Shown here: piece after piece, positions 14,962 through 32,000 of the stretch | How positions within the stretch are numbered: position 1 is the stretch's first letter | Layout: each line of letters starts with the position of its first letter | Assembly (NCBI RefSeq): GCF_035285525.1 | Contig: NZ_JAYKGW010000154.1 | Span: 1-32,000 of the forward strand | Reading direction: 5' to 3' | Length of the DNA stretch: 32,000 nucleotides | DNA from: Okeania sp. | GTDB taxonomy: Bacteria; Cyanobacteriota; Cyanobacteriia; Cyanobacteriales; Microcoleaceae | Made by a program: the position numbers and the translations under genes | The notes under the pieces: generated by a model | What the model was told of the DNA's origin: nothing | Databases searched by the model: none | Seen by the model: the letters and a program-made list of their open reading frames with translations, nothing else

Positions 14962-16155
14962 GTGAAGATACTATTAGTTTGTACAGAAAAATTGCCAGTA
15001 CCTTGTATACGAGGTGGAGCTATTCAAACATATATAGATGGTATTCTACCCTACCTAAAACGAGAACATGAAATCACAGTATTCTCATTAGCAGACCCAG
15101 AACTACCAGATCGGGAAATTAGAGAAAATATTCGCTACCAACGTGCTAGTAGAACAACATCAGAAGAATACTATCAAGCAGTAGCAGATTTTGTAGCAGG
15201 ACAACAATTTGATTGGATAGTAATATACAATCGTCCCAAATATTTACCAATAGTTGCTAAGGCAGCTCCAAATACTCGGTTTCTACTAAGTATGCACAAC
15301 GAAATGTTCCATACTAAGAAGATAGAACCAGAAGAAGCAAAAATATGCTTGGATCGAGTAGAAAAGGTAGTCACGGTAAGTAAATTTATTGCTGATGGGA
15401 TAGCCAAGTTATTTCCAGAATATAAACACAAGCTACAACCTGTATATGCTGGAGTAGACCTCAAGCGTTTTCAGCCAAGATGGACAGAAGGGGGGGGAGA
15501 AAAACGCCAACAAATGTTGGCAGCTCATGGTTTAGAAGGTAAACAAGTAATCCTTTGTGTGGGCAGGTTAACAGATAAAAAAGGACCACATATTTTAATA
15601 TCTGCGATCGCCAAAGTAATCAAAAAACACCCATCTGCTGTACTATTGCTAGTAGGAAGTAAGTGGTATGGTAATAACAACGAAAATGATTATGTTCGTG
15701 AGATTAAAGGAAAAGCCGAAAAATTAGGATCGGCAGTGCAGATGACAGGATTTATTCCTCCATCAGAAGTTGCAGATTATTTCCTATTAGGTGATATATT
15801 TGTATGTGCTTCTCAATGGGAAGAGCCTCTAGCTAGAGTTCATTACGAGGCAATGGCAACTGGACTATGTACGATTACTACCGCTAGGGGAGGAAACCCA
15901 GAAGTAATTGTGCCTGGGAAAAACGGTATTGTCATCACAGATTATGAAAATCCGAATGCCTTTGCCAAGCAGATAGATTACTTATTATCTAAACCCAAGG
16001 AAAGTGAAGCAATGGGAAGAACAGGTCGTGAGTTGGCTGAACTATATTATAGTTGGTCAAGGGTGGCTTGGGATATCCTAAGTATAATAAACGATTCAAA
16101 ATCACTGCCTTTAGAGAAACTAAACTCAATAGAGCAAGATAAAGAAGCTGGATAA
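14962..16155 (+). CDS. Family 4 (GT-B fold) glycosyltransferase, GTG start
   Basis: 397 aa. N-terminal MKILLVCTEKLPVP..GGAIQTY and an E-x7-E motif in WEEPLARVHYEAMATG, followed by GGNPEVI. There is no in-frame ATG near the N-terminus. Confidence 0.85.
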   Translation: MKILLVCTEKLPVPCIRGGAIQTYIDGILPYLKREHEITVFSLADPELPDREIRENIRYQRASRTTSEEYYQAVADFVAGQQFDWIVIYNRPKYLPIVAKAAPNTRFLLSMHNEMFHTKKIEPEEAKICLDRVEKVVTVSKFIADGIAKLFPEYKHKLQPVYAGVDLKRFQPRWTEGGGEKRQQMLAAHGLEGKQVILCVGRLTDKKGPHILISAIAKVIKKHPSAVLLLVGSKWYGNNNENDYVREIKGKAEKLGSAVQMTGFIPPSEVADYFLLGDIFVCASQWEEPLARVHYEAMATGLCTITTARGGNPEVIVPGKNGIVITDYENPNAFAKQIDYLLSKPKESEAMGRTGRELAELYYSWSRVAWDILSIINDSKSLPLEKLNSIEQDKEAG

Positions 16156-16317
16156 ATCGAATCCGATTTTTCCATATCAAAGTCAGACTTACTTAATATA
16201 AGGATAGGAATTATATAAAATCCGATTGATGATACGGTAACTGTTGTATATAACCTCCTTAATCTAAGTATAGTCTCAATTTAGTTTCCAGGCTTCAATA
16301 TTTTCTTTTTTCTTAAT

Positions 16318-31800: not shown

Positions 31801-32000
31801 AAAGAAGCACTAAAAAGTGAGTCTTGCATTGTAGAAAATATTGAGTTTTTGCAGATATTGGGAGCAGATGAAACTTCTAGTCGAACAGTGCAGATAGTCC
31901 TAGATCGAGAAAAAGATACAGAATATACTTATCAGTTGATCAGTTGTGAAGCAGGAACAGAATATGACCCATCAACAACTTGGACGGTTCATATTAAAGC
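28876..32000 (+). CDS. Type I polyketide synthase 2 (KS-AT-DH...), 5' partial; continues beyond the window end
   Basis: Not in the ORF track because there is no stop before 32000. My translation from ATG 28876: MNQPEEAQQQYNDNEIAIIGMSGRFPGARNLDEFWDNL... stays open to the window end. Confidence 0.9.
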   Translation, partial: MNQPEEAQQQYNDNEIAIIGMSGRFPGARNLDEFWDNLKNGVESISLLSDKQLIKSGVAPEILNNPSYVKVGSTVSDIEMFDANFFNYSPREAEEIDPQQRLFLECAWEAIESSGYNPEKYEGSIGVYSGSGLPTYLMYNLEEQDFILLGNRYFTQMVANDKDYLATRTAYKLNLTGPAITIQTACSTSLVAVHLACQSLLNGECDMALAGGVSIQVPQNVGYLHQEGLIGSHDGHCRAFDAKSSGTVFGNGVGVVLLKPLPDAIADGDIIHAVIKGSAINNDGSLKLGYTAPSVDGQAAVISEAQAVASISPETITYIEAHGTGTELGDPIEIEALTKAFSESTDKKQFCAIGSLKTNVGHMNTAAGVGALIKTVLALKHNLIPPSLHYEKPNPQINFSDTPFYVNNTLSEWKGNGIPLRAGVSSFGIGGTNSHVVLEEAPTLEKAEDDLPRPVHILTLSAKTDTALSDLVDSYHQYLKSNPDLDIGDVCFTANTGKVHFHHRLAVVAANQTELIEKLEQLKSVGTLYATSLPGICSGKLLMNAAPPKVAFLFTGQGSQYLNMGKELYEQAPVFQATLDECDEILGELGVTSILEIIYPDAETSPLDQTAYTQPALFAIEYALAKLWESWGIQPDVVMGHSVGEYVAATVAGIFSLEDGLKLIAARGQLMQKLPAGGEMVAVMASEAKVKSLLTPYREKVAIAAINGPKSVVISGEATAVREIVSSLESEKIKTKQLQVSHAFHSPLMEPMLAEWEAVAQELTYNQPEIPIISNVTGTIADASITTPKYWVDHVRLPVRFVDGMNALDKQGVDIFLEVGPKPILLGMGRRCLPKDVGVWLPSLRPDVGQFSEILCTLGELYVRGVKVDWVEFDGEYIRQKVTLPTYPFQRQKYWLDNYSRGASSASVNRDRSLIAEEEISNSLLGRKLPLPFAQQFRFQTKLTPEFPSYVKDHRYYGRIVVAGASHIVFGLLAGKEALKSESCIVENIEFLQILGADETSSRTVQIVLDREKDTEYTYQLISCEAGTEYDPSTTWTVHIK
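28918..30197 (+). other. PKS2 ketosynthase domain (approximate bounds)
   Basis: IIGMSGRFPGA; QTACSTS with Cys at 29431-29433; EAHGTGT; KTNVGHMN; GGTNSHVVLEE. Confidence 0.9.
30448..30475. repeat. 28-nt palindromic dispersed repeat GTAGGGACGTTGTATGCAACGTCCCTAC, in frame in the PKS2 KS-AT linker
   Basis: Encodes ..S-VGTLYATSL-PG... A near-identical copy is intergenic at 9764-9791. The paralogous PKS1 linker (KQGEEVTGICSGK) lacks it. Confidence 0.85.
30523..31400 (+). other. PKS2 acyltransferase domain, malonyl-type motif (approximate bounds)
   Basis: FLFTGQGSQ; GHSVGEY with Ser at 30799-30801; VSHAFHS. It is highly similar to the PKS1 AT at the nucleotide level. Confidence 0.85.
31640..32000 (+). 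other. PKS2 dehydratase-like domain, N-terminal part only, with divergent motifs
   Basis: SLLGRKL stands where HPLLG is usual. KDHRYYGRIVVAGAS (His at 31735-31737) has Ala where the motif Pro is usual. The domain is truncated by the window. Confidence 0.5.

Follow-up and report, generated by a model that had tools for sequence, protein, structure and literature searches.

An orphan PKS/NRPS assembly line of Okeania and Trichodesmium without a loading module and with a predicted AAE3-like ligase in its NRPS-type module

The 32,000-nt window analysed here, the whole stretch taken from contig NZ_JAYKGW010000154.1 of Okeania sp. (overall GC 0.36), carries four co-oriented biosynthetic genes on its forward strand: a family 4 glycosyltransferase (GT4) gene, the polyketide synthase (PKS) gene PKS1, a nonribosomal peptide synthetase (NRPS)-type gene, and the 5′ part of a second PKS gene, PKS2. 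Open reading frames (ORFs) and Pfam domains bear out the co-orientation and the domain orders that an earlier note on this DNA, made from its letters, had given for these genes. Judged from sequence, the window appears to hold the front two-thirds of an orphan hybrid PKS/NRPS assembly line. On balance, we favour the reading that this line has four modules, is primed in trans, and contains a ligase module that loads a two-carbon (C2) acid. At 100% identity, the NRPS protein matches an entry in NCBI from Okeania sp., which belongs to the marine Oscillatoriales; the Nostocales, in which the note had proposed to trace the cluster, are thus not the group of its host. The elements of the system lie at the following positions.

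13370–13669, forward strand: small Lys-rich DUF6312 protein (Pfam PF19831, 2e-32)
14388–14597, forward strand: small DUF6200 protein, kept beside the GT (Pfam PF19702 on an identical gene)
14962–16155, forward strand: GT4 glycosyltransferase (Pfam Glycos_transf_1, 5e-38)
16427–24079, forward strand: PKS1, KS-AT(malonyl)-DH-cMT-ER-KR(Tyr→His)-ACP with a C-terminal acidic docking motif (Pfam, motifs); alternative TTG start at 16415
23393–23395, forward strand: codon for His at the catalytic Tyr position of the KR (AQANHSAAN; motif alignment)
24076–25614, forward strand: NRPS-type gene, part 1, with TubC_N (24088–24237) and C domain (24295–25614, HHIISDG intact) (Pfam, alignment)
25633–25995, forward strand: Ax, an A8-A10-like leftover of a canonical A domain whose core is absent (sequence comparison)
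26176–27780, forward strand: embedded ligase of the AAE3/oxalyl-CoA-synthetase family, both subdomains, pocket signature IHCSAMPK (PDB matches, alignment)
27886–28452, forward strand: pseudo-Asub fragment (A10-like LPLTSDGKLDRKRL), PCP (GGKS) and basic C-terminal tail (Pfam, alignment)
28464–28843, unstranded: repeat-rich spacer between the NRPS-type gene and PKS2 (25-nt direct repeat in two copies, two inverted-repeat pairs)
28876–32000, forward strand: 5′ part of PKS2, KS-AT(malonyl) and the N-terminal portion of DH, from the ATG at 28876 to the window end (Pfam; 88% identity to a 1902-aa orthologue)

The line continues beyond the window. The last gene of the source contig encodes a 925-aa PKS3 fragment that is 88% identical to a 1359-aa KS-AT-ACP-TE protein of relatives. 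In two assemblies, the gene of this 1359-aa protein is preceded by an orthologous C-ligase-PCP gene and by the gene of the 1902-aa KS-AT-DH-KR-ACP protein that matches the PKS2 part of the window at 88% identity; full-length PKS2 orthologues share this domain order and end in a C-terminal docking helix. Because the PKS3 fragment and the KS-AT-ACP-TE gene of the relatives lie downstream of PKS2, the Okeania/Trichodesmium line consists of four modules with a TE at its end. PKS3-TE homologues also occur in Trichodesmium and Hydrocoleum. The statement that four genes make up the cluster therefore holds for the co-oriented line and fails for its completeness: PKS3 and tailoring genes follow further on in close relatives (a Lipocalin_5 protein, an FMO-type monooxygenase, two Lipase_3-DUF6200 proteins and a second FMO, downstream of the KS-AT-ACP-TE gene), and the genes for DUF6312 and DUF6200 precede the GT.

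Okeania shares the conserved cluster with Trichodesmium (T. erythraeum IMS101 among others), the marine metagenome-assembled genome (MAG) bin.35, and Roseofilum, and the association with the GT extends across three orders, among them the Nostocales. Between T. erythraeum IMS101 and the window, identity reaches 88% for GT4, 88%, 77%, and 87% for the KS, cMT, and ER-KR parts of PKS1, 85% for the C domain, and 89% for the ligase; the T. erythraeum NRPS protein (ABG52864) is found in many Trichodesmium MAGs. The distal end varies. In bin.35 and Roseofilum it reads KS-AT-ACP-ACP and lacks a TE, followed by an ACP, KS, HCS, ECH cassette in bin.35 and by nothing in R. casamattae. Dapis sp. BLCC M172 carries a longer line on one contig, composed of GT4, a KS1-type PKS (KS1 being the KS of PKS1), KS-HCS-ECH1-ECH2/ER, a PKS1 homologue (PKS1′), the NRPS-type gene (82%), PKS2 (86%), and another PKS, and represents natural shuffling of module blocks around the ligase module.

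No characterised pathway was found that matches this organisation. The earlier note named none, and the literature searched yielded no description of the cluster, of ABG52864, or of the DUF6312-DUF6200-GT4 head. The clusters for canalesolide (Okeania) and looekeyolide (Roseofilum) were rejected as matches, being other, larger clusters, and a heterocyst-glycolipid synthase was dropped: the hosts are non-heterocystous and the line has an NRPS-type module and a TE.

Repeats occur at two places of the locus. The spacer upstream of PKS2, possibly a small mobile or repeat element, holds the copies of its 25-nt direct repeat at 28634 and 28706, and a public short-read assembly of this DNA breaks within it. 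In PKS3 of the source contig, the AT-ACP linker ends in a perfect peptide repeat, PLPSPLEI, in at least four copies, and the DNA repeat behind it probably explains why the contig ends there.

PKS1 opens, as the earlier note described, directly with a Cys-bearing KS, which begins about 10 residues past the ATG at 16427; this start is shared by the public gene call and T. erythraeum, while the ORF caller selected the TTG at 16415. Pfam places the KS at residues 15–392, followed by AT (553–869), DH (919–1202), cMT (about 1417–1590), ER (1863–2163), KR (2180–2357), and ACP (2457–2524). The motifs of the KS (DTACSSS/HGTGT/NIGH, giving Cys/His/His), the AT (GHSVGE and HAFH, malonyl type), and the ACP (GLDSLM) are intact, as are GxGxG of the cMT and the NADPH motif of the ER. 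PKS1 thus has the Cys-His-His KS, the GHSxG motif of the AT, the ACP Ser, and the single AT per module of a modular cis-AT type I PKS. PKS2 carries the same KS/AT/ACP-type motifs, and the KS of PKS3 reads DTTCSSS.

PKS1 is a mosaic. Its KS is 71–80% identical to the bin.35 and Roseofilum proteins, whereas the rest, including DH, ER, and KR, reaches only 38–52%, and the cMT is restricted to the Okeania/Trichodesmium version, being absent from bin.35 and Roseofilum. The PKS1 proteins of Okeania, bin.35, and Roseofilum have 10–15 residues ahead of the KS. In Dapis, where the homologue is an internal module, it bears a 125-residue repeated docking head, which is absent from PKS1.

At its other end, PKS1 has the acidic tail reported before (EEIDEDMEEITL), and its stop codon overlaps the start codon of the NRPS-type gene as ATGA, in line with translational coupling. 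Six homologues share (E/D)DMEEITL without variation in this tail, and the acceptor protein begins with a TubC_N domain (PF18563, 1.5e-16), so both halves of a β-hairpin docking pair are present; the conserved peptide is the predicted partner of the TubC-type dock. The coherent hand-off from PKS1 to the NRPS-type protein that the earlier note had proposed is supported by all three features.

PKS1 had also been called fully reducing. Motifs of the DH (HxxxAxxxxP and DxxxQ) and of the ER (HAAAGGTG) are present, but full reduction is not established because the catalytic Tyr of the KR is replaced by His (AQANHSAAN). This His is common to the window, a second Okeania, and T. erythraeum IMS101 (three species in all), while Tyr occupies the position in all 34 KR motifs (N-Y-A/S-A-A-N) found among 120 other PKS proteins, none of which has His. 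The KR may consequently be dead, in which case DH and ER would be bystanders and module 1 would deliver a 2-methyl- or 2,2-dimethyl-3-oxoacyl chain. KR dysfunction has reportedly been recorded in Okeania malyngamide synthases. Idle domains would be expected to drift, however, and those of PKS1 do not: in a three-way comparison of the window, the second Okeania, and T. erythraeum, dN/dS is 0.09 for the KS, 0.09–0.14 for the KR, 0.12–0.16 for the ER, and 0.15–0.20 for the DH, with every PKS1 domain between 0.09 and 0.20, and the NADPH motifs are intact. Because the values for KR, ER, and DH are low, the reductive loop appears to be maintained by selection. We therefore regard a dead KR as possible, though doubtful.

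The genes upstream of PKS1 form a recurrent head. A scan for KS1 in one genome per bacterial species returned 16 loci at 69–94% identity, and in 13 of them the KS1-type KS opens the first synthase gene. Directly upstream of eight of these 13 KS-first genes (four from Okeania, two from Dapis, one each from T. erythraeum IMS101 and a freshwater MAG) stand a GT4 gene of 87–88% identity, DUF6312, and DUF6200. The synthases downstream of GT4-headed KS1-type genes vary between loci. In Hormoscilla and Moorena SIO3H5, the KS1-type genes are split into several short ORFs, with transposase-like ORFs nearby in Moorena SIO3H5, and look like decayed copies.

The GT leads to the same head from the other side. 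Neither the GT4 nor the DUF proteins could be assigned more closely (no NCBIfam model scored above its cut-off for the GT4, and none is specific for the DUF proteins), and the best PDB matches of the GT4 are generic enzymes of its family, such as PimB′ and MshA-like proteins. Its orthologues of at least 60% identity are confined to cyanobacteria; the next group is clostridial and CotSA-like at about 50%. Copies 69–88% identical adjoin KS-first PKS genes in Okeania, Dapis, Trichodesmium, Roseofilum, Umezakia, and the freshwater MAG. Two contexts were drawn from the GT search, independently of KS1: in Umezakia, DUF6312-DUF6200-GT4-DUF6208 precedes a KS-first PKS with a KS of 69% identity to KS1, and in Roholtiella, about 4.6 kb separates the DUF6312-DUF6200-GT4 set from the end of a large PKS gene. 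DUF6312 stands upstream of the GT in Okeania, Dapis, Trichodesmium, bin.35, Umezakia, and Roholtiella (45–82% identity), and in related clusters DUF6200 recurs as a C-terminal domain joined to Lipase_3, LamG lectin, or DUF7910.

That the GT belongs with the PKS, as the earlier note had it, agrees with the orthologues beside KS-first PKSs across genera. Because the head recurs beside KS-first PKS lines and DUF6200 is fused to lipases of the clusters, we are fairly confident that GT4, DUF6312, and DUF6200 are part of the system. They could instead be conserved chromosomal neighbours, for instance at a recombination hot spot, with no role in the pathway. One and the same head does precede different assembly lines in Okeania, Dapis, and Trichodesmium, and the GT lies on the opposite strand in Roseofilum. 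A consensus scan of the gap between GT and PKS1, where no terminator-like site and no excess of promoter-like sites was found and matches stayed at chance level, is neutral on co-transcription. Against mere neighbourhood, the association outlasts changes of flanking genes and of orientation and spans three orders, a type I PKS lies nearby in every GT context examined, with orthologues of the GT at 60% or more restricted to cyanobacteria, and at the far end of the cluster DUF6200 is found again, fused to lipases. We consider a head without function in the pathway unlikely.

Three observations concern the surroundings of the head. The 2.3-kb stretch at 12622–14961 is A-rich (AT skew about 0.15), and DUF6312 and DUF6200, both with Lys-rich products, are its only genes. 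The beta-lactamase-family gene before it (11380–12621, reverse strand) is 80–82% conserved at the equivalent site upstream of the head in other Okeania and in Dapis and was not found, within the flanks examined, in the loci of T. erythraeum or bin.35; it is probably a mere neighbour. T. erythraeum IMS101 has two GT4 paralogues, 88% and 84% identical to that of the window, and may thus possess a second GT4-headed locus.

As the earlier note had remarked, no loading didomain, FAAL, ACP, or docking head stands ahead of KS1, where the window holds the small DUF genes, the beta-lactamase-like gene, and the suf operon. A loader in cis is missing even where both cluster borders are visible: in Roseofilum casamattae, the cluster of GT (on the reverse strand), PKS1, NRPS, PKS2, and PKS3 is flanked by SMC on one side and by CHAT, RtcB, and other unrelated genes on the other, with loader and TE both absent. 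By these comparisons, the missing loader is a conserved trait of the family. It sets the line apart from curacin/jamaicamide-type cis-AT PKSs of marine Oscillatoriales, which it otherwise resembles in its CurL-like KS-AT linkers, the PKS2-PKS3 docking helices, and, in the bin.35 and Dapis versions, HCS β-branching cassettes. In curacin/jamaicamide-type pathways, loading falls to dedicated modules (GNAT, or acyl-ACP synthetase with an ACP). The N-terminal KS motif, from which the earlier note had deduced the type of upstream partner, proved unreliable: among KS1 orthologues it reads IACRFPGA, MSCRFPGA, or MACRFPGA, and one Moorena locus has a KS of 79% identity directly behind an NRPS.

The closest parallel for priming comes from Okeania hirsuta PAB10Feb10-1, in which a gene of the LplA/LipB family (LipM-like) and a PPTase gene precede the gene of a KS-AT-MT-KR-ACP protein; the KS of this protein, 88% identical to KS1, begins at residue 4. 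We take this locus to be the malyngamide (mgc) locus. In the malyngamide pathway, a LipM-like octanoyltransferase reportedly supplies an octanoate starter. Both first PKSs are KS-first, come from organisms of the same genus group, and have no loading module in cis. They differ in module content, as the O. hirsuta protein is a KS-AT-MT-KR-ACP module, and in what stands before them, the LplA/LipB gene and the PPTase gene taking the place of DUF6312-DUF6200-GT4. Of the two marks of LipM-primed initiation, the window thus shows a KS-first PKS of the KS1 clade and lacks a LipM/LplA-like gene beside it; such a gene is present in the O. hirsuta locus (by Pfam) and in one more KS1 locus (judged from near-identical N-terminal sequence). 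O. hirsuta offers the best available analogy for KS1, which by this comparison would be primed in trans with a fatty acyl group from primary metabolism.

Alternatively, PKS1 might prime itself, its AT loading acetyl or its KS decarboxylating malonyl-ACP, so that neither an external starter nor a trans loader would be needed and the product would be short. A loader gene is present in none of the contexts examined, and the normal Cys/His/His triad of the KS and the malonyl signature of the AT would suit this. However, the KS1 clade (69–94% identity) includes the first KS of O. hirsuta behind its LipM/LplA-like gene, and the conservation of KS1 (71–80%) relative to the rest of PKS1 (38–52%, to bin.35/Roseofilum) is as expected for a KS tuned to a starter. 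Self-priming therefore seems improbable to us.

The NRPS-type gene (24076–28452) deviates from a canonical C-A-T module. Pfam recognises TubC_N (residues 5–54), C (74–513), AMP-binding (702–1086) with AMP-binding_C, and PCP (1352–1417). After the C domain with its intact HHIISDG motif, an A8-A10-like remnant (LPKTESGEIDEAVL) takes the place of the A-domain core. Matches to NRPSs cover the C and T domains alone, and the AMP-binding domain matches acyl-CoA ligases; it is not an NRPS A domain. The flanks of this domain have a recognisable ancestry. A Symploca protein composed of C, AMP-binding, KR, PCP, and TE matches residues 1–642, Ax included, with its N-terminus at 57% identity, and a Moorena producens JHB protein composed of C, AMP-binding, KR, and PCP matches residues 1272–1458 with its C-terminus at 62% identity, whereas the embedded ligase resembles the corresponding keto-acid ligase (KAL) region of the two proteins only weakly (23% over 367 residues). 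Pfam detects no KR in the NRPS-type protein, which is about 490 residues shorter than the M. producens relative.

This layout recalls the C-Ax-KAL-KR-T class described in September 2026, in which a degenerate A domain (Ax) flanks an embedded KAL and a KR, reduced Ax forms keep A6-A10 only, and Dol15D-M2, CrpD-M2, HctF-M1, HcaB, and HapC are examples (PMC13643306). Like these modules, the window module begins with a TubC-type dock and a C domain followed by a degenerate, partial Ax that keeps late A motifs (A8-A10), has a foreign adenylating enzyme embedded in it, and ends in a pseudo-Asub piece, a T domain, and a basic tail. In contrast to them, the embedded enzyme is an AAE3/oxalyl-CoA-synthetase-type ligase rather than a KAL, and the KR is absent. 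Because the KAL is replaced and the KR missing, the module would be unable to activate a 2-oxo acid and then reduce it. We interpret the gene as a KAL-KR-T scaffold whose KAL-KR cassette was apparently swapped for an AAE3-type ligase, with loss of the KR. The base composition of the ligase (GC 0.44 and GC3 0.33 vs. 0.31 and 0.21 for the C domain) would fit a foreign insert. In the C-Ax-KAL-KR-T class, a helix of Ax completes the pseudo-Asub fold. An AlphaFold2 model of residues 515–1345 of the window protein, built on a nine-sequence alignment, is unreliable overall (mean pLDDT 42, pTM 0.28); Ax and pseudo-Asub, each folded locally, are its sole parts with pLDDT of 65–85.

The best PDB matches of the ligase are oxalyl-CoA synthetases (OCSs), namely Lathyrus OCS (6qjz, 3.5e-72), Arabidopsis AAE3 (5ie0, 3e-71), and yeast Pcs60 (9e-64); fatty-acyl, malonyl, and aryl ligases score far below. 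The similarity to AtAAE3, LsOCS, and Pcs60 (PDB 5ie0/5ie3, 6qjz, 8aff) extends over the full ANL length (E 1e-64 to 1e-72). Among nine aligned full-length orthologues of the NRPS-type protein (four from Okeania, two from Roseofilum, one each from Trichodesmium, Dapis, and bin.35), the ligase is the best conserved part, at 75–94% identity vs. 50–84% for the C domain. The P-loop, A5, A7, A8, and the A10 Lys are present, and the ANL motifs and pocket residues are invariant in all nine.

In AtAAE3, the residues Val215, His216, Cys288, Ser289, Ala313, Met314, His319, and Lys500 make up the oxalate pocket; Ser289 and His319 are the OCS-specific oxalate contacts among them (PMC8905533). Seven of the eight positions are kept or conservatively replaced in the window ligase (H216, C288, S289, A313, M314, and K500 kept, V215 exchanged for Ile). 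Of the two OCS-specific contacts, Ser289 is kept, whereas His319 is replaced by Pro in the nine orthologues and in a whole clade of protist relatives. These relatives emerged from a profile-free search of 1.8 billion representative proteins, in which the signature IHCSAMPK occurs in 47 of the approximately 150 best matches. The closest non-cyanobacterial ones (45–50% identity) come from the dinoflagellate Durusdinium trenchii, another dinoflagellate, a pelagophyte, a diplonemid, and marine metagenomes, and some members of the clade are fused to carrier-protein domains. The embedded ligase thus belongs to a distinct AAE3-like clade with a very small predicted pocket; the other members of this clade are mostly from marine protists. 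AtAAE3, LsOCS, and Pcs60 stand outside the clade, and unlike these free CoA ligases, the window ligase is embedded in a synthetase beside a PCP. As judged from the signature residues, the NRPS-type module would fall outside both known groups, differing from the C-Ax-KAL-KR-T class in KAL and KR and from the oxalyl-CoA synthetases at His319.

We conclude that the ligase is probably functional, that oxalate is probably not its substrate, and that the module probably accepts a two-carbon acid rather than a standard amino acid. A C2 hydroxy acid of the glycolate type would suit a scaffold that has ester-forming hydroxy-acid modules as its ancestors and has lost the KR. Glycolate starters are known from dinoflagellate polyketides (PMC5484107, PMC2866473), which provides a lead.

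A serious alternative is glycine, which the ligase would activate and the module would join as an amide, as in malyngamide-type lipoamides. In Roseofilum acuticapitatum, a C-ligase-PCP unit is fused to KS-AT-ACPx3, and the first two PKS genes of this contig match the O. hirsuta pair in size. In malyngamide biosynthesis, this position is said to be occupied by a glycine module, with a β-branching module after it. The loss of the basic His319 would agree with a non-anionic distal group, and Roseofilum genomes are reported to contain malyngamide-like clusters (PMC9967302). On the other hand, no acidic residue for ammonium binding is found at the mapped pocket positions, and the ancestors of C domain and scaffold are hydroxy-acid modules that form esters. 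We assign glycine a low probability. Oxalate, which as oxalyl-S-PCP would serve as a keto-acid-like or starter unit (e.g. extended by PKS2) and not as a nucleophilic acceptor, has the top PDB matches and the seven pocket positions including Ser289 in its favour and yet appears the least attractive candidate, and a quite improbable one, because the intact C domain (HHxxxDG) would receive no nucleophile and the His319 contact is gone, in a module that moreover lacks the KR used on 2-oxo acids by the relatives of its scaffold.

Several points weigh against the trans-primed four-module line with a C2-loading ligase that we favour. The Moorena KS behind an NRPS suggests that the KS1 type is not strictly initiating, and no LipM, FAAL, or acyl-ACP synthetase gene was found in the window or in the relatives' flanks examined. 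The KR lacks its catalytic Tyr and, if dead, would leave DH and ER idle, so that module 1 would yield a 2-methyl-3-oxoacyl chain. The distal line is not uniform, with no TE or cMT in Roseofilum and bin.35 and an HCS cassette in bin.35. The pocket comparison depends on sequence alignment, the AlphaFold model of the module being poor. Finally, gene and domain order, intact motifs, conservation, and family assignments are observed, and it is from these that we infer all of the chemistry, from substrate and starter to product.

Under the favoured reading, KS1 would receive in trans an acyl starter, probably a medium-chain fatty acyl group, that primary metabolism supplies. Module 1 (PKS1) would add one malonate, methylate the chain at carbon with S-adenosylmethionine, and probably reduce it despite the KR His. 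The chain would then pass to module 2 via the pair of acidic tail and TubC-type dock. In module 2 (C-[AAE3-like ligase]-PCP), the ligase would load a C2 acid onto the PCP, glycolate-like or glycine-like and probably not oxalate, and the C domain would join it to the chain, as an ester if the ancestry of the scaffold is a guide. Module 3 (PKS2, KS-AT-DH-KR-ACP) would add an enoyl C2 unit and module 4 (PKS3, KS-AT-ACP-TE in the closest relatives) a β-keto C2 unit, before the TE releases the product. Monooxygenases, the lipocalin-like protein, lipases, and GT4 could carry out tailoring, with GT4 acting on the product or on a precursor. A glycosylated lipid or lipopeptide, as proposed in the earlier note, is a guess.

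The first part of the window (positions 1 to about 12.6 kb) holds housekeeping genes: sufR (reverse strand), sufB, sufC, sufD, sufS, genes for a DUF4177 protein and a cytochrome b561-like protein, and the beta-lactamase-like gene (reverse strand). The suf iron-sulfur cluster operon is complete (950–9226), with sufR divergent from sufB, sufC, sufD, and sufS. Its intergenic spacers are unusually long (about 0.5–1 kb), which fits a genome of low coding density such as Okeania or Trichodesmium.

Three features make this more than a routine orphan cluster: the borrowed ligase, the conserved architecture that has a GT4 head and no loader, and the occurrence in Trichodesmium. The embedded-ligase architecture for hydroxy-acid incorporation was first described in 2026, for keto-acid ligases (PMC13643306). 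A different ligase family on the KAL-KR scaffold, without a KR, would widen the known recruitment of foreign activating enzymes by NRPSs, and the ligase module would offer a compact part for engineering. Dinoflagellates and marine protists use glycolate and glycine starters in toxin biosynthesis. As the closest relatives of the ligase are found in these organisms, a substrate assigned here could transfer to them. Tentatively, and well short of conviction, we join two proposals: that an NRPS module took up a ligase of a protist-dominated AAE3-like clade to install a ready-made C2 hydroxy or amino acid (e.g. glycolate) without a KR, the clade being a possible glycolate- or C2-starter-activating enzyme of dinoflagellate PKSs; and that the DUF6312-DUF6200-GT4 head is a cyanobacteria-wide way to start or anchor loader-less type I PKS lines, with a product family in the diazotroph Trichodesmium. 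A head common to many different loader-less PKS lines points to a shared step, and as the cluster is present in the cultured and fully sequenced T. erythraeum IMS101, a small lipid-like metabolite of a biogeochemically important organism would be directly testable.

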